This document shows positions 12,859 through 58,294 of a DNA stretch of 64,000 bases, piece by piece. Positions within the stretch are counted from its first letter, which is position 1, and each line of letters begins with the position of its first letter. The position numbers and the translations under genes are program-made. The notes beneath the pieces were generated by a model. The model ran no database searches and was not told the DNA's origin. It saw nothing but the letters and a program-made list of their open reading frames with translations. Source of the stretch: Chloroflexota bacterium (GTDB lineage Bacteria > Chloroflexota > Anaerolineae > Aggregatilineales > Aggregatilineaceae); contig JBBIHG010000003.1 in assembly GCA_037447125.1 (NCBI GenBank), positions 8,493 through 72,492 of the forward strand, given 5' to 3'.

Positions 12859-13209
12859 CTAGGTGTCCGCATCCACGTCAGGTGGCACCAGCGGTTCGAT
12901 CAGCGCAATCAACTCCGGAATCTCGTGCTGGACAACACGCCACACCACGTCCAGGTCCACATCGTCGTATTTATGAACCAGCTGATTGCGCATGCCAATG
13001 ATGCTTCTCCAGGGTATCTCAGGGTGCATCTCCCGAAACTCCTCCGATACCCGTCGTGCCGCCTCGCCTATGATCTGAATCGAATGCACGATGGCATACT
13101 GCCTCATCGCATCCTCAGCGAGACCATCCCGGTCCACACCCTGCGCAAACTGCTGCGCCAGGCGCGCTGAGTCCAGAATGTCAAGCAGATACGCCAGATC
13201 GCGCGACAT
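12859..13209 (-). CDS. hepT: HepT (DUF86/HEPN) toxin of a type VII HepT-MntA TA pair
   Basis: Rx4HxY motif 'RNQLVHKY'. ATG at 13209 (MSRDLAYLLDIL) overlaps the mntA 3' end by 29 nt. Confidence 0.85.
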   Translation of the reverse strand: MSRDLAYLLDILDSARLAQQFAQGVDRDGLAEDAMRQYAIVHSIQIIGEAARRVSEEFREMHPEIPWRSIIGMRNQLVHKYDDVDLDVVWRVVQHEIPELIALIEPLVPPDVDADT

Positions 13210-13519
13210 AGATCGTCTTGGCCGAGCGCAGGATCGCCCGGCGACGAAGATAATTCCGACTTTCTTCAACTGCGCGTCGGTTGACCAGGTCTACCCGGCG
13301 ACCGAATACCGCCTCGACTTCCTCTTGCATGGCGATCAAGTCGTCCAGTGACCGTTCACTCCCTGGCGCGAACGTCACCAGCACATCAATGTCACTGTCC
13401 GCGCCGAAGTCATCGCGCAGCACCGAGCCAAACAGCGCCAGTTCGTCAATCTGCCAGCGGCGGCAGAAACGCTCCAGCGCCTCTGTGGGCAATGCGACGC
13501 GCGCTTCGTCCCCGGTCAC
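13181..13519 (-). CDS. mntA: MntA minimal nucleotidyltransferase antitoxin
   Basis: GSx10DxD motif 'LFGSVLRDDFGADSDIDVLV'. Starts 13 nt after the stop of the upstream nuoM paralog. Confidence 0.85.
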   Translation of the reverse strand: MTGDEARVALPTEALERFCRRWQIDELALFGSVLRDDFGADSDIDVLVTFAPGSERSLDDLIAMQEEVEAVFGRRVDLVNRRAVEESRNYLRRRAILRSAKTIYVARSGVSA

Positions 13520-20322: not shown

Positions 20323-20513
20323 TGCAGGCTCGCCCTCCAGTGTGATCTGGATGCACCGCACGCGCACGCGCCGGGCGCAACAGCCCGCTAGTATAACAAT
20401 CAGCCAGGGGATGGGCAATTTCCGGGCGCGTCGCGCCACCATTCTAGCACACGGCCCGGTGAACACAAAACCCGTGCCAGGGGGAACGCATCCGCACTTG
20501 GGGGCGCAATGCC

Positions 20514-20614
20514 TGAACCGCAGAGGCACAGAGGACGCAGAGGAGAGCATTTTGAGGAGAATGAACTATGGAAGATTCTCTGCTTTTCTCCGCGCTCTCT
20601 GCGTCTCGGCGGTG
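20514..20614. repeat. REP-A element, copy 1 of 5 (~85-100 bp, terminal inverted repeats GAACCGCAGAGGCRCAGAGG ... CTCTGCGTCTCGGCGGT)
   Basis: Related copies at 42623-42706, 47914-47999, 49430-49512 and 56311-56397. All are intergenic. Confidence 0.85.
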
Positions 20615-42622: not shown

Positions 42623-42706
42623 TCACCGCAGAGGCACAGAGATCGCGGAGAAAAGCGGACAATCTCTACGGTACTTCTCTGTGTCCTCGGCGTCTCTGCG
42701 GTTCAG
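42623..42706. repeat. REP-A element, copy 2
   Basis: CACCGCAGAGGCACAGAGATCGCGGAGAA ... CTCTGTGTCCTCGGCGTCTCTGCGGTTCAG. Confidence 0.8.
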
Positions 42707-43701
42707 CGTTTCTCGCCCCCCAATGCAGATGCCCCTTCGAGCCGCTCCACGGCGCGCAAGCGGGCGCTGCGGCTGCGCGGGTTGGCAGCGATCTCCTCAG
42801 CGGAGGGCCGCTCGGGCTTGCGCGTGACCAGGCGGATGCGCGCCACATGCCCACAGGTGCAGACCGGCTGGCGCGGCGGACACAGGCAGCCGGCTGCCTC
42901 GGTCTTGAACGTTTGCTTGACGATGCGATCTTCCAGGCTGTGGAAGCTGATCACCGCCAGCCGTCCACCGGGGCGCAGCAGATCAAGGGCGACCGGCAGG
43001 GCGCGCTCGACCGCGCCCAGTTCGTCATTGACGGCGATGCGCAACGCCTGAAAGGTGCGCGTCGCCGGGTGTATCTTCTCGCGCGGGCCGCGCTGGGCGC
43101 CAGCCACGACCTCGGCAAGCTGGCGGGTGGTGCTCAGCGGGCGCGCGGCGACAATCGCGCGGGCGATGCGCCGGGCGTTGCGCTCCTCCCCATAGCGGAA
43201 CAGGACCTCGGCCAGCGCCTCGGCGTCCCACGTGTTGACGAGGTCGGCGGCGGTCGGCCCGCCCGCTGACGGGTCGAAGCGCATGTCGAGCGGCCCCGCG
43301 CTCATGAAGGCGAAGCCGCGCGCCGGGTCGTCCACCTGCATCGAAGACAGGCCGAGGTCGAGCAAAATCCCGTCCACGCCCTGTCCCCCATCGCCCACCG
43401 TCTCCAGCCAGGCCGGGACCAGCGTCCCCATCTGCTCGTAGCTGGCGTGGCGCAGCGCCACCCGTCCCTCGAACGGGGCCAGCCGGGCGCGCGCCAGGGC
43501 CAGGGCCGCCGGGTCGCGATCCAGCCCCAACAGGCGAGCATCCGGCGCAGCAGCCAGGATCGCCGCCGCGTGCCCGCCCGCGCCGACGGTGCCATCCACG
43601 AAGCGCCCTGCCAGGCGCTCACTGACGCGCAGCGCGGCGAGCACGGCCTCCACCAGCACGGGAATGTGGGGAGCGTCAGGGTGGGTCATGGTGACTGTCA
43701 T
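42703..43701 (-). CDS. rsmH: 16S rRNA (cytosine1402-N4)-methyltransferase
   Basis: 'HIPVLVEAV', 'DGTVGAGGHA', 'DGILLDLGLSSMQVD', 'ISFHSLEDRIVK'. ATG at 43701 or 43689. No dcw genes follow it. Confidence 0.9.
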   Translation of the reverse strand: MTVTMTHPDAPHIPVLVEAVLAALRVSERLAGRFVDGTVGAGGHAAAILAAAPDARLLGLDRDPAALALARARLAPFEGRVALRHASYEQMGTLVPAWLETVGDGGQGVDGILLDLGLSSMQVDDPARGFAFMSAGPLDMRFDPSAGGPTAADLVNTWDAEALAEVLFRYGEERNARRIARAIVAARPLSTTRQLAEVVAGAQRGPREKIHPATRTFQALRIAVNDELGAVERALPVALDLLRPGGRLAVISFHSLEDRIVKQTFKTEAAGCLCPPRQPVCTCGHVARIRLVTRKPERPSAEEIAANPRSRSARLRAVERLEGASALGGEKR

Positions 43702-47780: not shown

Positions 47781-47913
47781 CAAGCCGAGCGTAGCGAGGC
47801 TGGGGGTGAGGCTAAGCCAGAGCGCGGCAGCGCAGGTCCCGACCTGACAAGTCGTTCGCGAGCCCCGGAGGAGGAGGCGGAGGTGGCTTGCGGACTTGTG
47901 AAGTGAGACCCTC

Positions 47914-47999
47914 TGAATCGCAAAGACGCAGAGAACGCGGAGGAGGACTATAAGGCAGACTCTCGCTCTTCACTGCGCCCTCTGCGCCTCTGCGGTGAC
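47914..47999. repeat. REP-A element, copy 3 (more diverged)
   Basis: GAATCGCAAAGACGCAGAGAACGCGGAGGAGG ... CACTGCGCCCTCTGCGCCTCTGCGGTGAC. Confidence 0.7.
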
Positions 48000-49429: not shown

Positions 49430-49512
49430 CGCCGCAGAGGCCGGCAGGCGCGGCGAAGAGTCAGCAGCCCTCATTAGCTCTTCTCTGCGGCCTCCGCGTC
49501 TCTGCGGTTCAG
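49430..49512. repeat. REP-A element, copy 4
   Basis: GCGCCGCAGAGGCCGGCAGGCGCGGCGAAGAG ... CTCTTCTCTGCGGCCTCCGCGTCTCTGCGGTTCAG. Confidence 0.75.
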
Positions 49513-49623
49513 AGAAACTCGCCTCCGAATCCGTATGCGCCCGCAAGGTGGCCCTGATTGGCACCTGCCCACCGCGCATGGTACCATTCGACTAGATGCG
49601 CCCCTGGCCAGCGAGAGACGACG

Positions 49624-51272: not shown

Positions 51273-52309
51273 TGGACGTGCTGCGCGAGCTATGCGAGGC
51301 AGTTGGCATCTCCGGCGACGAGGGCGAAGTCCGCGCGCTGGTGCTCAAGCACATCCGGGATCATGTCGAGGACATCCGTATTGACGCGCTGGGCAGCGCG
51401 CTCGCCGTCAAGCGCGGCACTGGCGCGGTCAAGTTGCGCGTCATGGCCGCCGCGCATATGGACGAAGTGGGCATGATGGTCATGGGCTTCGACAGCGACG
51501 GCACCATCCGCTTCAGCGCGGTCGGCGGGCTGGACGCGCGCATCCTGCCGGGGACGCGCGTGCTCGTCGGCCCGGACAGGATTCCGGGCGTCATCGGCTG
51601 GCCGCCGCTGCACCTCAACAAGAGCCAGGACACCGTGCCCATTGACCGGCTGCGCATTGACATCGGCCTGACCAGCCGCGAAGCCGCCCAGAAAGCCCTC
51701 AAGCCCGGCGATTCCATCGCCTTCGCCAGCACGTTCGAGGTGCTGGGGCCGACCGTGCGCGGCAAGGCGCTCGACGACCGCGCCGGCTGCGCCTCGCTGA
51801 TACATCTGGTGCAGGGCGATCCGTTCCCCTTCGACCTGCACGTAGCCTTCACCGTGCAGGAGGAGGTTGGGCTGCGCGGGGCGCGGGCCGCCGCCGGCCG
51901 CATCCGGCCCGACGCGGCCTTCGCCCTGGAGACGACCGCCTGCCACGACCTGCCGCAAGACCCCGACGAGCCGGACCAGACGACGATCACCCGGCTGAGC
52001 GGCGGCCCGGCGATCACAGTGATGGATCGCTCGATGGTCAGCGACCCGCGCCTGGTGCGCCACCTAGTGCGTGCCGCTGAGGCGGCGGGCATCCCCCACC
52101 AGTTCCGCTCGCCGCAGCACGCCGGCGGCACCGACGCGGGAGCTATTCACAAGACAGGTGTGGGCGTGCCGAGCGTGGTGGTGGCCAACCCCTGCCGCTA
52201 CATTCACGGGCCGTATGCGATCATGAGCATCGCCGACTGGGAGCACCAGGCGGCATTGCTGCGCGCGGCGTGGGAAACGCTGGACGAGGATGTGCTCGCG
52301 CGCCCCTGA
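51269..52309 (+). CDS. M42-family metallo-aminopeptidase, paralog 2
   Basis: 'GISGDEGEVR', 'MAAAHMDEVGMMV', 'KALDDRAGC', 'VQEEVGLRGA', 'CRYIHGP'. The ATGA start overlaps the paralog 1 stop. Confidence 0.85.
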   Translation: MMDVLRELCEAVGISGDEGEVRALVLKHIRDHVEDIRIDALGSALAVKRGTGAVKLRVMAAAHMDEVGMMVMGFDSDGTIRFSAVGGLDARILPGTRVLVGPDRIPGVIGWPPLHLNKSQDTVPIDRLRIDIGLTSREAAQKALKPGDSIAFASTFEVLGPTVRGKALDDRAGCASLIHLVQGDPFPFDLHVAFTVQEEVGLRGARAAAGRIRPDAAFALETTACHDLPQDPDEPDQTTITRLSGGPAITVMDRSMVSDPRLVRHLVRAAEAAGIPHQFRSPQHAGGTDAGAIHKTGVGVPSVVVANPCRYIHGPYAIMSIADWEHQAALLRAAWETLDEDVLARP

Positions 52310-52340
52310 CAGGGGGCGACAGACTTTGGGAGGGACAACC

Positions 52341-52940
52341 ATGAGCGAGACGCAGGTCAAGTCAGAGACGCCCGTCTACCAGCTCAAGGTGACGCTGAAC
52401 GACAGCAAGCCACCCATCTGGCGGCGGTTGCTGGTGCCCGGCGACATCACCCTGGCATATCTTCATCATCTCATTCAGGCCGCCTTCGGGTGGTATGACT
52501 ATCACCTGCACCAGTTCATCGTGCGAGAGCAGTACTACAGCCAGCCGTCCTTCGAACTGGACGAGTATATGGCCAGAGTGGGGGATGAAAGACGCATCCG
52601 GCTCGACCGCCTGGTTCCTGGCGAGAAATTCAAATTCCGCTACGAGTACGACTTTGGTGATAGCTGGTTGCATGACATCCTGGTCGAAAAAATCCTGCCG
52701 CCCGATCCCCAGCGCACGCTGCCTGCATGCATCAAAGGCAGGCGCGCCTGCCCGCCGGAGGACGTCGGCGGCATTTGGGGCTATTATGGCTTTCTGGAAG
52801 CGCTCCAGGACCCCAATCACCCTGAACATGACGATTATCTGGAGTGGATTGGCGGAGAGTGGGATGCGGAGGCGTTCGATCTGAATGAGGTCAACGAGCG
52901 GCTGCAAACCGCCTGGAAAAGATTGAAACGGCATCGTTAA
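52341..52940 (+). CDS. pRiA4b ORF-3-like family protein
   Basis: 'YQLKVTLNDSKPPIWRRLLVPGDITLAYLHHLIQAAFGWYDYHLHQF' and 'ACPPEDVGGIWGYYGFLEAL' are characteristic of that family. Lower GC than its neighbours. Confidence 0.75.
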   Translation: MSETQVKSETPVYQLKVTLNDSKPPIWRRLLVPGDITLAYLHHLIQAAFGWYDYHLHQFIVREQYYSQPSFELDEYMARVGDERRIRLDRLVPGEKFKFRYEYDFGDSWLHDILVEKILPPDPQRTLPACIKGRRACPPEDVGGIWGYYGFLEALQDPNHPEHDDYLEWIGGEWDAEAFDLNEVNERLQTAWKRLKRHR

Positions 52941-52966: not shown

Positions 52967-53977
52967 GTGAGGATGACTCCTGTGGAAACCCTGATCAAAA
53001 CCCTGGCCGAAGCCTGGGGGCCGCCCGGCTATGAGCACCACATCCGCGACCTGATCCGCGCCGAAGTCGCCAATGCCGCCGATGAGATCACCGTGGACGC
53101 GCTCGGCAACCTGATCTGCCGCGTGGGGGACGGCCCCCGGCGCGTGCTGGTCGCCGCGCATATGGACGAGATCGGCCTGATCGTCAGCCACATAGACCGG
53201 CAGGGCTACGCGCGCTTCGCCAGCATCGGGGCGCTCTTCCCGGCGACGCTGCTCGGCGCGCGCGTGCGCTTCGAAAACGGGACCATCGGCACCATCGGCG
53301 TCGAGCACCAGTTCAGCAAGCGGCGCGAGCTGCCCGACCTGCCGGGGTTCTACCTGGACATCAGCACCGGCGCAGACAGCAACGCGCCTGTCGGCGTGGG
53401 CGACCCTGGCGCGTTCGTGGGCGAGGTCTTCCGGCGCGGCGAGCGCATCATCGGCAAGAGCCTCGACAACCGGCTGGGCTGCGCCGTGCAGATCGAGGCG
53501 CTGCGCCGCGTCAAGGAGACGGGGGCGCCGCACAGCGTCTACTTCGTCTTCAGCGTGCAGGAGGAAGTCGGCGCGCGCGGGGCCGGGCCGGCGGCCTACG
53601 GCGTGGAGCCGCACCTGGCGCTCGTCGTGGACGTAACTCCCTGCGGCGACCAGCCCCATGGCAAGGAGATGGCCATCCGGCTGGGCGGCGGCCCGGCGAT
53701 CAAGATGCGCGACGAGGGGCTGATCGTGCCGCCGGCGGTGCGCGACCTGCTCATCGCGCGCGCCGAAGAGGCGGGCATCCCCTACCAGCTCGAAGTGCTG
53801 ACCGGCGGCGGCTCGGACGGGCGCACGATTCAGGCGGTGCGGGCGGGCGTCCCCACCGGGGCGATCTCGCTGCCGCTGCGCTACGTACACACGCCCAGCG
53901 AGACGGCGAACATGGGCGACGTGCGCGCGGCGGTGGACTTGCTGGCGGCGGTGCTGGTGGGGGAGATTGCGCTATAA
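52967..53977 (+). CDS. M42-family metallo-aminopeptidase, paralog 3
   Basis: 'WGPPGYEHHIR', 'LVAAHMDEIGLIV', 'KSLDNRLGC', 'VQEEVGARGA', 'LPLRYVHTPSE'. Start at GTG 52967 or ATG 52973. Confidence 0.85.
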   Translation: MRMTPVETLIKTLAEAWGPPGYEHHIRDLIRAEVANAADEITVDALGNLICRVGDGPRRVLVAAHMDEIGLIVSHIDRQGYARFASIGALFPATLLGARVRFENGTIGTIGVEHQFSKRRELPDLPGFYLDISTGADSNAPVGVGDPGAFVGEVFRRGERIIGKSLDNRLGCAVQIEALRRVKETGAPHSVYFVFSVQEEVGARGAGPAAYGVEPHLALVVDVTPCGDQPHGKEMAIRLGGGPAIKMRDEGLIVPPAVRDLLIARAEEAGIPYQLEVLTGGGSDGRTIQAVRAGVPTGAISLPLRYVHTPSETANMGDVRAAVDLLAAVLVGEIAL

Positions 53978-54009
53978 TGCCTGAAATCCGTTGAGTCCCG
54001 GAGTTGGGC

Positions 54010-55089
54010 ATGGTGCCGCCTGTTCAGCAATCGTTATTCGTAACCCGACAGGCCAGGCGATATAACGTCCCATTTCCCTCCACCCGCTATCAGGGGAGCA
54101 AACTCAAGCTGGCGGAGTGGATATGGGCGAACGTTGAGGACCTGGAATTCGATACTGTCTTGGATCTGTTTGGCGGGACAGGCTGTGTCAGCCACTTATT
54201 CAAGACGGCTGGTAAGCGCGTCATCTACAACGATATCCTGCGGTTCAACTGGACTATCGGCCTGGCCCTAATCGAAAACAGGGATGCGCGCTTAACGCCA
54301 GCGGATATCGAACTGGTGCTTGAGCGACATCCCGGCATCAACTACCCCGATTTCATCCAGCGAACGTTCAGCGGCATCTACTTCACTGACAGCGAGAACG
54401 CCTGGCTGGATCGCGTTGTTTACAACATAGATCATTTGTTGACCGATCCGTTCAAGCAGGCTTTGGCGCGCTTTGCGGTGTATCAGGCTTGTATCGTCAA
54501 GCGTCCCTACAACCTCTTTCATCGCGCTAACCTGTACATGCGCCAGGCCAGAGTCCAGCGATCCTTTGGCAATAAGACGACATGGGATACACCTTTTGAA
54601 GTCCATTTTCGCGCTTTTGCCACCGAAGCCAACGCAGCCGTGTTTGACAACGCGCGCAACAATCGGGCTATTTGTGGCGATGCGCTCGAAGCACCTGTTG
54701 ACGTGGATCTGGTTTATATTGACCCGCCCTATGTGAACCACAGAGGCGTAGGGGTGGACTATCTGGATTTTTACCATTTTCTCGAAGGGCTTACGCTGTA
54801 TGATGAGTGGCAACAGCGCATTGACTACAGCACCAAGCACCGGCGGTTGCAGCGTTTGGAGTCACCCTGGACTAGACCCGGCACCATCCTGGCGGCTTTT
54901 GAGGCAGTGATTGCCCGTTATCGCAAGAGCATTCTGGTTGTCTCCTATCGCAACGATGGCATACCATCCCAAGATGCGCTTATAGAGGTGCTCAAGCGAT
55001 ACAAGAGCAATGTCTTTGAGGCCAATAAGCGCCAGAAGTACGTCTTGTCTAAACGCGATTCAGCCGAGCTGCTCCTAATTGCACTGTAG
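54010..55089 (+). CDS. D12-class (Dam/M.EcoRV-like) N6-adenine DNA methyltransferase
   Basis: 'RYQGSKLKLAEWI', 'LDLFGGTGCVS', 'LVYIDPPYVN'. Low GC (31/60 at 54181-54240, versus 43/60 at 53521-53580). Confidence 0.85.
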   Translation: MVPPVQQSLFVTRQARRYNVPFPSTRYQGSKLKLAEWIWANVEDLEFDTVLDLFGGTGCVSHLFKTAGKRVIYNDILRFNWTIGLALIENRDARLTPADIELVLERHPGINYPDFIQRTFSGIYFTDSENAWLDRVVYNIDHLLTDPFKQALARFAVYQACIVKRPYNLFHRANLYMRQARVQRSFGNKTTWDTPFEVHFRAFATEANAAVFDNARNNRAICGDALEAPVDVDLVYIDPPYVNHRGVGVDYLDFYHFLEGLTLYDEWQQRIDYSTKHRRLQRLESPWTRPGTILAAFEAVIARYRKSILVVSYRNDGIPSQDALIEVLKRYKSNVFEANKRQKYVLSKRDSAELLLIAL

Positions 55090-55113
55090 CCGCACTGTGG
55101 TGAGCCGAAGCAG

Positions 55114-55626
55114 ATGGCTTCTCAAGATGCATTCCGCGACTCCTTGGTCTCCTACTTTGGCAGGTTGCGTGAGCGGGTGACAACAGAGACGGGGGATTGG
55201 ACGGTAAAAGGATTCATTGACGTTTACCAGCGCATCTACACGATCACGCTGGACACCAAAGTGCTGTCCAAAGCACTTGAGTTGTTGATGTTTCCAGCGT
55301 TGGTCGAGTTTGCTCAGGCAAACGGCTACCAGATGGTGTTGGCCCGCCAACAAAACCAATATCCCGACATCAGTTGGCTAGCTCCCGATGGCGCCAAATA
55401 TGCGCTAGACATCAAGTCCACATATCGTAGAGTGGTGGATCGCCAGGGGAGGTCCAAGGTCAACGGGATGACGTTAGGGACGTACACAGGCTACTTCAGG
55501 GCGCGAGAAAGTGCCTCAATCACCACCTTTCCCTACCAGGACTATGCCAAGCATTATGTGCTCGGCGTAATCTACTCTCAGATCAAGGGCCTTGATGAGC
55601 GGCGTGTCTATGACATCGGCCAACTG
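55114..55626 (+). pseudogene. EcoRV-family restriction endonuclease, C-terminally truncated (ORF tail to 55722 is antisense of hepT)
   Basis: 'LDTKVLSKALELL', 'QQNQYPDISWLAPDGAKYALDIKSTY' and 'FPYQDYAKHYVLGVIYSQ' parallel R.EcoRV 'SDTKVLSTIFELF', 'QQNHYPDFTLYKPSEPNKKIAIDIKTTY' and 'YPFDQYIAHWIIGYVYTR' (recalled from memory). Similarity ends near aa 171 of an expected ~245. Confidence 0.7.
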
Positions 55627-55888
55627 CCACCAGGTCAACGCGGTCATACTCGTGGATCAGCTTGCTGCGCATTCCCGCGATCTGCTGCCAGGGTATCTCA
55701 GGGTGGCTGGCTCGAAAAGTGATTGAGGTGCGCCGGACAGCTTCACCAATGACCTCGATGCGCCGGATCACAGCGTCCTGGGTCTTGATATCCTGCTCAA
55801 AGGCAGCCTGATCCATGCCCTGCACGAAGGTCTGGATCATCTGTGCACTTTGCAGCATATCGAGCAGGTAGACCAGATCACGCTGCAT
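55583..55888 (-). pseudogene. hepT: HepT (DUF86/HEPN) toxin, second copy, apparently missing its C-terminal helix
   Basis: 'RSKLIHEY' Rx4HxY motif. Colinear with the 12859 copy up to 'DRVDLVAV' (down to ~55622). The remaining 12 codons are antisense of the endonuclease ORF. Confidence 0.65.
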
Positions 55889-56201
55889 ACACCACCCGCG
55901 CTGACTGCAAGATAGCCTTGCGCAGAAGATAATTCGGGTCGCGCTCGATGACCCGGCGATAGAGCAAATCTACCCGGCGGCCCAACAGCGCCTCCAGTTC
56001 GCGGCGCATTGCCTGGCGGTCGGGAACGGGATCGGCATCTGGCGCGAAAGTCACCAGCACGTCCACGTCGCTTTGCGGCCCGAAATTGCTGCGCAGCACC
56101 GAGCCAAATAGCGCCAGTTCGATGATGTTCCATCGCCGGCAGAACGCCGCAATGCCCTCCATCGGCAGATCAATCGGCAGCCGGTCTTGCGTCTTGCTCA
56201 T
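55878..56201 (-). CDS. mntA: MntA minimal nucleotidyltransferase antitoxin, second copy
   Basis: ATG at 56201 (MSKTQDRLP). 'LFGSVLRSNFGPQSDVDVLV'. Overlaps the hepT start by 11 nt. The tracked 311-aa ORF is an artefactual extension. Confidence 0.85.
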   Translation of the reverse strand: MSKTQDRLPIDLPMEGIAAFCRRWNIIELALFGSVLRSNFGPQSDVDVLVTFAPDADPVPDRQAMRRELEALLGRRVDLLYRRVIERDPNYLLRKAILQSARVVYAA

Positions 56202-56310
56202 CTCTGTCGCCCAATCACTCTCCTTCTTTGAGCGCCTATTATCCCCCAAACGCGGCGGAGAGAAAACCATCAGTTCAACAGGGTGTATCTCACGGTAGGG
56301 ACGAGATTCC

Positions 56311-56397
56311 TGAACCGCAGAGGCGCAGAGGACGCGGAGAAGAACTGGAACCTCTCGATACTTACTTTTCTCTGCGCTCTCTGCGTCTCGGCGGTGA
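56311..56397. repeat. REP-A element, copy 5
   Basis: TGAACCGCAGAGGCGCAGAGGACGCGGAGAAG ... TTCTCTGCGCTCTCTGCGTCTCGGCGGTGATC. Confidence 0.85.
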
Positions 56398-56494
56398 TCT
56401 CTTTCAGAAGATGAAATGCGCCCATTCAACACAAACCGCCCCCGCGCGAGTCCCTTCGCACGGGGGCGGTGCTTTGCCGCTAACTGCCGCCAGC

Positions 56495-58294
56495 CTAGGC
56501 CAGCGTCAGCGCCTTGCTCGCCACGAGGCGCGTCGCCAGGTCGGCGAAAGCCAGCACCGGCTGCGGCCCCAGGTCTTCGCCGGAGCGCAGCCGCACGCTG
56601 ACCGTGCTCGACGCCGCGTCGCGGTCGCCGACGACCAGCATCCAGGGAATCTTCTGCTGCGTCGCCGCGCGAATCTTGCCCCCAACGCGCCCGTTGGAGT
56701 CGTCCACCTGCACGCGCAGGCCCTTGCTGTGCAGGATGTTCGCCACGTCCTGGGCGTAGGCAATGTGCCGGTCGGCCACCGGGATCAGCGCGACCTGTAG
56801 CGGGGCCAGCCACGCCGGGAACGCGCCGGCGTAGTGCTCGATCAGCACGGCGACGAAGCGCTCCATGCTGCCGTACAGCGCGCGGTGGATCATGATCGGC
56901 TGGTGGCGCTCGTTGTCCTCGCCGACGTATTCCAGCTCGAAGCGCGCCGGCAGGTTATAGTCCACCTGCACGGTGCTGATCTGCCACTCGCGCTTGAGCG
57001 CATCACGGATGATGAAGTCCAGCTTGGGGCCATAGAAGGCCGCCTCGCCCTCCTCCACCGTGAAGTTCAGCCCCCGCCTGGTCGCCGCGGCGATGATCGC
57101 TTTGGCCGCCTGCTCCCAGACTTCGTCGCTGCCCACGTATTTGTCGCTCTGCGGGTCGCGGACGCCCACCCGCGCCCGGTAGTCGGTCAGCCCCAGGCTG
57201 CGGAAGATGAACTCCACCAGGTCCACCACGCCCAGGAACTCGTCCTCAAGCTGCTCCGGCGTGCAGAAGATATGGGCGTCGTCCTGGGTGAAGCCGCGCA
57301 CACGGGTCAGGCCGTGCAGCTCGCCCGATTTCTCGTAGCGGTAGACCGTGCCGAACTCAGCCATGCGCACCGGCAGGTCGCGATACGAATGCAGGTCGTC
57401 CTTATAGACGTGGATGTGGTGCGGGCAGTTCATCGGCTTGAGCATGAACAGGTCACCCTCCACCTCGAAGGGCGAGTACTGGCTGTCCTTGTAGTACGGG
57501 TAGTGCCCGCTCTTCTCGTAGAGGGCCACGCGCGCGATATGCGGCGTGATGACCGGCTCGTAGCCGCGCTCGATCTGCACCTCGCGCAGGAAGCGCTCCA
57601 GCAGGTCGCGCAGGATCGCGCCGTTGGGCTTCCACAGCGGCAGACCCTTGCCCACCAGTTGGTTGAAGGTGAACAGGCCAAGTTGCTGGCCGAGCGCGCG
57701 GTGATCGCGCTTGCGGGCTTCTTCGAGCAGGGCCAGGTACTCCTCAAGCTGCTCCGCCGTCTCCCAGGCCGTGCCGTAGATGCGGGTGAGCATCTCGCGG
57801 TTCTCGTCGCCGCGCCAGTAAGCGCCCGCCGGCGCTTTGAAGGTGATGCTCAGCGCGTCCGGGTTGATCTCGCGCGTGTTGGCCACATGCGGTCCCCGGC
57901 ACAGGTCTTCGAACGTGTCCTGCGTGTACGTGCTGATCACCACCGCTTCGTCGGTTTTCTCGCCGTACTCGTCCACGCCGCCACGCTCCAGCCCGTCAAT
58001 CAGCTCGATCTTGTACGGCTGGTCGTGGAACAGGACGCGCGCCTCACTGGCGCTGACCTCCTTGCGAACGAAGTCGTGCCCTTCGCGGATGATGGCGCGC
58101 ATCCGCGCCTCGATCTCGGCCAGGTCTTCATCGGTCAACGGGCGCGGCAGGTCGAAGTCATAGTAGAAGCCGTCTTCGATGGGCGGGCCGATGGCGATCT
58201 TGGCCTGGGGGAACTTCTCCAGTACGGCCTGAGCCATGACGTGCGCCGTGGAATGGCGGATGCGGTAGAGCTTGCTGTCTTGATAGCGTTTCAT
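56495..58294 (-). CDS. thrS: Threonine--tRNA ligase lacking the N-terminal TGS domain (599 aa)
   Basis: ATG at 58294 after AGGAGAA. 'RIRHSTAHVMAQAV' (editing-domain HxxxH) at residues 11-24. Class II motifs 'FRDLPVRMAEFGTVYRYE', 'GLTRVRGFTQDDAHIF', 'ERFVAVLIEH'. Anticodon-binding C-terminus. Confidence 0.92.
   Translation of the reverse strand: MKRYQDSKLYRIRHSTAHVMAQAVLEKFPQAKIAIGPPIEDGFYYDFDLPRPLTDEDLAEIEARMRAIIREGHDFVRKEVSASEARVLFHDQPYKIELIDGLERGGVDEYGEKTDEAVVISTYTQDTFEDLCRGPHVANTREINPDALSITFKAPAGAYWRGDENREMLTRIYGTAWETAEQLEEYLALLEEARKRDHRALGQQLGLFTFNQLVGKGLPLWKPNGAILRDLLERFLREVQIERGYEPVITPHIARVALYEKSGHYPYYKDSQYSPFEVEGDLFMLKPMNCPHHIHVYKDDLHSYRDLPVRMAEFGTVYRYEKSGELHGLTRVRGFTQDDAHIFCTPEQLEDEFLGVVDLVEFIFRSLGLTDYRARVGVRDPQSDKYVGSDEVWEQAAKAIIAAATRRGLNFTVEEGEAAFYGPKLDFIIRDALKREWQISTVQVDYNLPARFELEYVGEDNERHQPIMIHRALYGSMERFVAVLIEHYAGAFPAWLAPLQVALIPVADRHIAYAQDVANILHSKGLRVQVDDSNGRVGGKIRAATQQKIPWMLVVGDRDAASSTVSVRLRSGEDLGPQPVLAFADLATRLVASKALTLA

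Follow-up and report, generated by a model that had tools for sequence, protein, structure and literature searches.

How does a bacterial chromosome come to hold two addiction modules that have each kept an intact antidote and lost the end of the toxic gene? The question is raised by a 64,000-nucleotide stretch of DNA from a Chloroflexota bacterium of a Thermoflexus-like or Thermoflexus-related lineage (GenBank assembly GCA_037447125.1, contig JBBIHG010000003.1, positions 8,493 to 72,492 of the forward strand), referred to here as the window and numbered from its first letter. The window carries an island of 2.45 kb and four genes, flanked on one side by thrS and on the other by M42c, the third in an array of M42 aminopeptidase genes; in it, a restriction-modification (R-M) unit of the EcoRV family faces a toxin-antitoxin (TA) unit of the HepT/MntA kind. 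R-M systems are themselves treated as TA-like addiction modules (reviewed in PMC3874152), and here the two toxic genes converge and break off at one shared point. The evidence presented below indicates that, very probably, one deletion between the convergent toxic genes took both 3′ ends and was tolerated since both antidotes stayed. The retained pieces of the endonuclease gene (R) and the toxin gene (hepT) are called R′ and hepT′; contigs and assemblies used for comparison carry the prefix L, and their proteins the prefix P. The parts of the island on which the argument turns are as follows.

54010-55089, plus strand: M, a D12-class N6-adenine DNA methyltransferase gene, full length at 359 residues (Pfam PF02086, E = 4e-17)
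55114-55626, plus strand: R′, the 5′ part of an EcoRV-family endonuclease gene, 513 bp, codons 1-171 of 290
55622-55888, minus strand: hepT′, the 5′ part of the toxin gene, codons 1-89 of 114
55623-55626: the deletion junction, a shared ACTG placed base by base in alignments to L001, L016 and L017 (R side) and to L013, L014 and L016 (hepT side)
55878-56201, minus strand: mntA, the nucleotidyltransferase antitoxin gene, full length at 107 residues (Pfam PF01909, E = 1.7e-13)

The open reading frame (ORF) that begins with R′ (55114-55722, plus strand) encodes 202 residues, the first 171 of which belong to an EcoRV-like endonuclease. Residues 22-171 match positions 2-151 of the 244 in the Pfam Endonuc-EcoRV profile (PF09233; E = 1.8e-53, 181.9 bits, cut-off 25), and residues 25-171 align with residues 14-156 of the 245 in the solved EcoRV structure (PDB 1EO3; E = 1e-17). 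The original prediction, made from the letters alone, held that this ORF tracks R.EcoRV through the PD...DIK core and that the similarity stops near residue 171; the EcoRV relationship is borne out, and both alignments end at exactly that residue. Pairing with the solved EcoRV shows that R′ keeps the QQN minor-groove loop (QQNQYPD opposite QQNHYPD) and the catalytic PD...DIK (EcoRV D74, D90 and K92; ALDIKST opposite AIDIKTT), and that the recognition loop (EcoRV 182-188, GSGNTTN) and the C-terminal half of the fold are not present. Past 55626 the frame only reads the antisense of hepT (residues 172-202), again as had been proposed.

A database search with R′ returned an identical 202-residue protein and P0002, an intact endonuclease of 290 residues that is 98% identical to R′ over residues 1-171. 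P0002 and R.EcoRV align over residues 14-243 (E = 3.6e-34), the part lost from R′ pairing with EcoRV 157-243 and reading GSGNTRNIGS where EcoRV has GSGNTTNIGS, which places the recognition loop in the lost part as anticipated. The expected intact length of about 245 residues has to be revised: the close intact relatives have 290, and among hundreds of R relatives almost all fall between 280 and 300, so R′ lacks 119 residues (172-290), amounting to about 40% of the fold with the recognition loop included. Across the whole window no remnant of R residues 172-290 was found. Truncation is common among R genes of the EcoRV family, with examples of 190, 210, 220 and 232 residues on long contigs, and one of the shortened genes, P0025 (L024 and L025, 4001-4573), is an unrelated family member, 68% identical, in another genomic context. 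An apparent second in-frame lesion, the "280-residue R" of L018, proved to be a scaffold gap filled with N and was discarded.

The convergent HepT′ ORF (55583-55888, minus strand) encodes 101 residues, and its tail reads the antisense of R to a stop codon at 55583-55585. Residues 11-89 match positions 1-102 of the 120 in the Pfam HepT-like profile (PF01934; E = 2.6e-21, 76 bits, cut-off 23.5). Intact relatives of 114 residues are 90-97% identical to HepT′ over residues 1-89, and about 250 HepT relatives have 110-119 residues with a conserved C-terminal helix; measured against the 114-residue form, HepT′ is missing 25 residues (codons 90-114), within the 25-30 that had been claimed. The lost segment is conserved in an alignment of 34 relatives (W90, then D-I-P-x-L-I...P-L-x-P-P). 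In a predicted model of the intact HepT P0122 (predicted local distance difference test score, pLDDT, 90.7) the last long helix of the core spans residues 86-107, and on this model HepT′ would be without 18 of those 22 residues. In structure the model is matched best by HEPN toxins from HEPN/MNT pairs (7AE2, 7BXO and 6M6U; probability ~1, template modelling score ~0.64). A phmmer search of the intact HepT against PDB sequences returned nothing, and a family profile built from the 34 relatives was required to reach Shewanella HepT (6M6U_B, E = 2e-8). The partner MntA scores 51.2 bits against Pfam PF01909 (cut-off 21), carries a GSX10DXD motif that reads FGSVLRSNFGPQSDVDV in the translation, and has 107 residues, as in L013, L014 and L034, in agreement with its earlier description as full length; mntA overlaps the start of hepT by 11 bp. 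At the stricter level of NCBIfam equivalogs, where the cut-off is 60 bits, HepT′ (32.3 bits) and intact P0122 (42.3) fall under NF047751 and MntA (40.1) under NF047752, and by these scores the pair is assigned to HEPN/MNT at the Pfam family level only.

Other HepT-MntA pairs were encountered along the way. The window itself holds a second, intact one at 12859-13519 (minus strand), with a HepT of 116 residues and an MntA of 112; this HepT (12859-13209) covers positions 1-118 of the HepT-like profile and is 54% identical to P0122. In four samples (L027-L030) a HepT of 89 residues, P0166, stands beside its MntA and ends where the homology of the window protein ends (…HEYEGVDCGA). A close pair with a HepT 97% identical occurs at L014 9150-10053 and in L015, between Band_7/NfeD genes and a LysM gene, with remnants of M42 peptidase on both flanks; either the HepT-MntA unit moved together with the repeats described below or the genome was rearranged.

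Evidence for a single event comes from the junction. Homology on the R side ends at 55626 (the next bases, CA, match too), and homology on the hepT side begins at 55623 (55622-55623), so that the two share an ACTG that occurs once in the window and twice in intact loci; extended to 55629, the match holds at six of seven bases. The breakpoints are identical against every comparator, L034 included. As the original prediction had it, the truncated ends abut without intergenic DNA: no spacer separates the R′ and hepT′ homologies, and the two ORFs overlap by 140 bp. The missing DNA amounts to 545 bp relative to L016 and 546 bp relative to L034, where its counterpart consists of 360 bp of R, a 103-bp spacer and 83 bp of hepT (shared ACTG counted). 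The lost spacer, about 102 bp between the stop codons, carried a repeat copy. Neither this repeat nor the C-terminus of R or of hepT has left fragments anywhere in the window. By our own estimate, an overlap of at least 4 bp would be expected by chance at ~1.6% of random junctions, and the 4-bp overlap fits an illegitimate, microhomology-mediated deletion. The retained parts of R′ and hepT′ have no further stop codons or frameshifts, and the ratio of nonsynonymous to synonymous divergence (dN/dS) from relatives is 0.17-0.33 for R′ and 0.05-0.09 for hepT′. Because the retained parts are undamaged and these ratios are low, the lesion is taken as young relative to the divergence of the genomes compared.

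Across related Chloroflexota assemblies, reached through contigs encoding relatives of R or HepT, the gap between M42c and thrS was found in five states.

Empty: peptidase stop codon, 28 bp and thrS terminator (L022, Anaerolineae bacterium CHL4; L031)
R-M only: L001-L004
HepT-MntA and Phd-PIN, without R-M: L013, L019 and L035-L042
All intact: M and R (290 residues) convergent with HepT (114 residues) and MntA, then Phd and PIN or Phd and a 391-residue gene (L016; L017 with L023, Thermoflexus sp. BE2012_66_11; L018; L034)
Eroded: the window and, identically, L011 (GCA_034433135.1) and L012 (Logan assembly of SRR11582151)

The intact version that had been predicted at syntenic loci therefore exists, in four assemblies and at the same chromosomal site, with the R and hepT stop codons about 102 bp apart. 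Set against it, the window shows one gap of 545-546 bp with ACTG at both edges and with M and mntA whole, which supports the proposal that a single deletion took both toxic C-termini and spared the antidotes. The account as first given covers both truncations and is incomplete in scope, since the spacer with its repeat copy and a Phd-PIN module were lost too.

We hypothesize the following course of events. The M42c/thrS gap would be a hotspot that gathers small addiction modules in the Thermoflexus-related lineage, and the apparent collision of two systems would go back to the insertion of an R-M unit beside a resident TA unit within it. The ancestor would have had the arrangement of L016, L017, L018 and L034, in which M-R faces mntA-hepT with the toxic genes innermost, convergent and about 102 bp apart, and a Phd-PIN pair would have lain beyond mntA. 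A single illegitimate deletion of about 545 bp between the two ACTG tetranucleotides would then have taken R codons 172-290 with the GSGNT loop, the spacer with its repeat copy, and hepT codons 90-114; a separate second rearrangement would have taken Phd-PIN and the last repeat copy and left a hairpin repeat. That the double truncation arose in a single step is what the lone junction suggests, and from the segments lost both truncated toxic products are most likely inactive. A deletion that spares the antidotes is the only kind that an addiction module lets its host survive. Whether it was selected as a disarmament or merely tolerated, the sequence may be read either way.

Several observations weigh against this account. 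First, no direct parent is found among the comparators, the R-M unit being closest to R-M-only L001 and the thrS flank to TA-only L013, and a one-step illegitimate join on import of the R-M unit would give the same scar. Second, HepT′ retains the RX4HXY motif of catalysis and AMPylation (R74, H79 and Y81, invariant in the alignment of 34 relatives). RNase activity resides in this motif, whose tyrosine MntA polyadenylylates in Shewanella (PMC7641770). Finally, comparable short forms occur elsewhere and are conceivably useful: the 89-residue HepT persists in four samples, and P0025 is truncated at residue 172, one codon off the breakpoint in the window.

The first of these points hints at acquisition in one step, in which a TA-only recipient resembling L013 took up R-M DNA by homologous recombination in the M42 gene on the left and an illegitimate join at ACTG in hepT on the right. 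This lineage would then never have had a complete R, and the end of hepT would have gone in the same event. Window DNA of the R-M unit (54010-55626) is ~98% identical to L001 8897-10513, with a synonymous divergence (dS) of 0.044-0.050, much less than that of the adjacent peptidase gene (93.6% identity, dS 0.167); thrS of L001 is 92% identical. From a dS so far below that of the peptidase gene it follows that the R-M unit was exchanged between lineages after the flanks diverged, and the thrS flank of the window is nearest to that of TA-only L013 (94.8%). Moreover, homology-facilitated illegitimate recombination typically leaves short microhomology at one end, much as is seen here. The term is used in PMC6382021. 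Against such an origin stand the four assemblies with an intact R-M unit and an intact HepT/MntA unit at this very site: because the complete intermediate is viable and common, a later deletion in situ needs no special assumption. The scars left by the two routes are identical. On balance we regard a one-step acquisition as unlikely.

It is quite improbable that the two genes were damaged in successive events, R and hepT each being cut short or disabled on its own and the DNA between them lost later. At least one further rearrangement did affect the island, which lost Phd-PIN, and the frequency of truncated R genes in the family would favour such a sequence of events, but the window has one clean microhomology junction, no leftover fragments, and retained parts free of extra lesions.

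That the short proteins are functional variants, R′ acting as a regulatory or dominant-negative form and HepT′ as a still-active or still-regulated RNase, is very hard to credit. The retained R74, H79 and Y81 and the independent short forms, the 89-residue HepT of four samples and the R of L024 and L025 that ends at residue 172, speak for it. The ~250 HepT relatives of 110-119 residues with their conserved helix and the 280-300 residues of almost all R relatives speak against it, as does the tail of each ORF, which is merely the antisense of the other gene, and R′ has lost about 40% of the fold, with the recognition loop in its entirety. An assembly chimera of R-M-only and TA-only strains can be dismissed with near certainty: strains with different locus states do co-occur in metagenomes and Logan contigs often break at repeat copies, but the same junction stands on four contigs (1.75, 20-50, 57.6 and 88.4 kb) from at least two assemblers, spanning NCBI assemblies and the Logan assembly of SRR11582151 and 100% identical wherever comparable, and a 4-bp overlap is too short to mislead a k-mer assembler.

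The remaining features of the locus, at the borders of the island and to the right of mntA, are these.

52967-53977, plus strand: M42c, the third M42 aminopeptidase gene
53906-53976, plus strand: the 3′ end of M42c, a target sequence; relatives repeat it behind every cassette, and the window has the sole copy left
53977-56425: the whole variable island, standing where the empty site has 28 bp (L022 3585-3612; L031)
56202-56269, minus strand: a conserved stretch upstream of mntA, the last DNA of the TA unit common to relatives
56270-56425: a replacement segment, where relatives have a third repeat copy and Phd-PIN or Phd with the 391-residue gene
56435-56470, minus strand: the thrS terminator hairpin, by the alignments the fixed right border of the putative hotspot in all states
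56495-58294, minus strand: thrS

The edges of the island were set by alignment with the empty locus, in which L022 3584 corresponds to window 53976 and L022 3613 to window 56426. The low-GC pocket that had been noted between the M42 array and thrS was confirmed, with a G+C fraction of 0.549 for the island (0.53-0.62 along it); the M42 gene stands at 0.71, thrS at 0.66 and the window as a whole at 0.649. A promoter scan of the island did no better than shuffled sequence. Within the M42 peptidase array lies another gene of lower G+C (0.57-0.60), a PRiA4_ORF3-family member at 52290-52940 (Pfam E = 5.7e-72) that is 76-80% identical to relatives, compared with 88-93% for its neighbours.

To the right of mntA, homology to relatives (L013, L016 and L034 for the region immediately upstream of the gene) gives out at 56267-56270 and is found again from 56426-56429, immediately ahead of the thrS terminator. 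Relatives hold ~1.0-1.9 kb here and the window 156-161 bp, most of which is a strong hairpin. Phd-PIN, or Phd with the 391-residue protein, is entirely absent (window 56268-56428 compared with L035 878-1906, L013 8593-9617 and L016 3269-5181). The hairpin, long and nearly perfect, belongs to a repeat of ~100 nt (about 56286-56410) with a minimum free energy of -54.2 kcal/mol (z = -4.6), and at least four further copies occur in the window, at 20501-20614, 42623-42719, 47913-47998 and 49476-49521, and also at L016 12466-12563. In its dispersed, palindromic character it looks like a miniature inverted-repeat transposable element (MITE) or a repetitive extragenic palindromic (REP) sequence. The sole result of an Rfam scan over 53500-57000 was a plant microRNA match below threshold on this repeat, which was dismissed as chance. 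Compared with the fullest state, with its three addiction modules, the window lineage retains two antidotes only.

The repeats at these borders suggest how the modules might have arrived. In relatives a direct copy, 68-78 bp long, of the 3′ end of the peptidase gene follows the R-M unit, and another follows the HepT-MntA unit. Such peptidase-end sequences (L001 8793-8864 and 10905-10975; L016 8017-8090, 5914-5984 and 5078-5150; L034 1371-1448 and 564-607) number one in the empty site, two in L001-L004 and L013, three in L016-L018 and L034, and one again in the window. Just left of the repeat copy both units have the same 20-nt motif, CCCCCACAGATCG(A/C)GTCTGC, which is absent from the window, and from the loci compared except beside repeat copies. 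Relative to the empty L022, L001 has an insert of ~2.1 kb that carries M and R and no mobility gene and is flanked by a target duplication of 68-71 bp. It thus shows all three features by which insertion with long target duplication is recognised, an insert with R and M, a size below 20 kb, and a duplication of more than 30 bp that aligns to the empty site (PMC2853133). No integrase or transposase was found in these islands. Scans of the collection with a 38-nt repeat pattern gave six loci in total, two of them empty sites, and no new cassette types. Logan contigs with an intact R-M unit (L005-L010) all end ~61 bp past the R stop codon, at the start of the repeat copy, an assembly break attributable to the direct repeat.

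Together, these observations raise the possibility, which we put forward tentatively, that the M42c/thrS gap is a site where different small addiction modules, here a type II R-M unit and a type VII HepT/MntA unit, enter successively by a common mechanism with no integrase in the unit. Each unit would end in the motif of about 20 nt (CCCCCACAGATCGAGTCTGC) followed by the peptidase-end copy of about 70 bp, and could excise and re-enter through repeat recombination or a recombinase acting in trans. Since the window keeps the upstream copy only, the leftover island can no longer be excised by repeat recombination; on this reading, its two deletions took both downstream repeats and froze the disarmed island in place.

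The surviving methylase deserves separate consideration. M matches PF02086 over residues 29-273, displays the S-adenosylmethionine (SAM)-binding motif DLFGGTG (FxGxG type) and the catalytic IDPPY, and is 98% identical in DNA to the M gene of L001. Nearly every listed member of its 90% cluster has the same length of 359 residues. The earlier description of a full-length Dam-class methylase holds as to length and D12 class; as to Dam itself it does not, because the score against the Dam subfamily model TIGR00571 (16.9 bits) is under the cut-off of 114.85, and M is accordingly not a Dam orthologue. A tblastn search of M against plasmids gave generic "DNA adenine methylase" matches only, below 41% identity, and no link to a characterised M.EcoRV. 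Judged by its company, M is now a probable solitary GATATC methylase and would presumably still methylate that site. The two GATATC sites noted within the M gene, at 54232 and 54304, were verified, and a third, previously unlisted, falls within hepT′, at 55787. The window shows no avoidance of GATATC, with nine sites observed and 7.1 expected. One of the two sites in M is conserved in close relatives and the other is not, and a more distant M gene has neither; given this patchy conservation, a regulatory role for them is unsupported.

In the gap between M42c and thrS a natural series is preserved with unusual completeness at a single site: no module, the R-M unit alone, the TA unit alone, the two together and intact, and the two together and disarmed. 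The series resolves to the base a route by which addiction modules can be shed, in which a deletion centred between convergent toxic genes drops the poisons and spares the antidotes, and the locus is useful as a textbook-style example and supplies a probable solitary GATATC methylase. The loss of R that leaves a solitary methylase, the decay of a toxin gene and deletion at microhomology are all familiar, and the locus is a clean instance of known processes with no new mechanism. The cassette-like borders common to the R-M and TA units are the part that could lead to novelty.

Among known systems, EcoRV of E. coli (R.EcoRV, PDB 1EO3 and 1AZ0; M.EcoRV) resembles the R-M unit in the QQN loop, the PD...DIK centre and the GSGNT(T/R)NIGS loop of P0002, and in its D12 (Dam-like) methylase partner. 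Unlike EcoRV, R′ breaks off opposite EcoRV residue 156, and the intact relatives have an extra acidic tail of ~45 residues that brings them to 290. The EcoRV genes of E. coli are divergent, whereas here M precedes R in tandem, 24 bp apart, and the GATATC specificity is presumed from the relationship. The type VII HepT/MntA system of Shewanella oneidensis (SO_3166/SO_3165; 5YEP and 6M6U; PMC7641770) shares with the window pair the mntA-hepT order, the overlap of the genes, and the RX4HXY and GSX10DXD motifs. It differs in that the hepT of the window is without most of its last helix, and the present clade is known here from sequence and a predicted model. The L001 unit, set beside the empty L022, resembles the R-M insertions with long target duplication described by Furuta, Abe and Kobayashi (2010; PMC2853133); in contrast to those insertions, a TA unit is here bounded likewise at the same target, a 20-nt motif is common to both units, and the window has lost the downstream repeat copies. 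Finally, the window resembles the solitary methyltransferases that derive from R-M systems by loss of R, in that M is kept and R destroyed by a route that post-segregational killing permits. Unlike those cases, one lesion would here also have disabled the toxic partner in a second addiction module, unrelated to the first.

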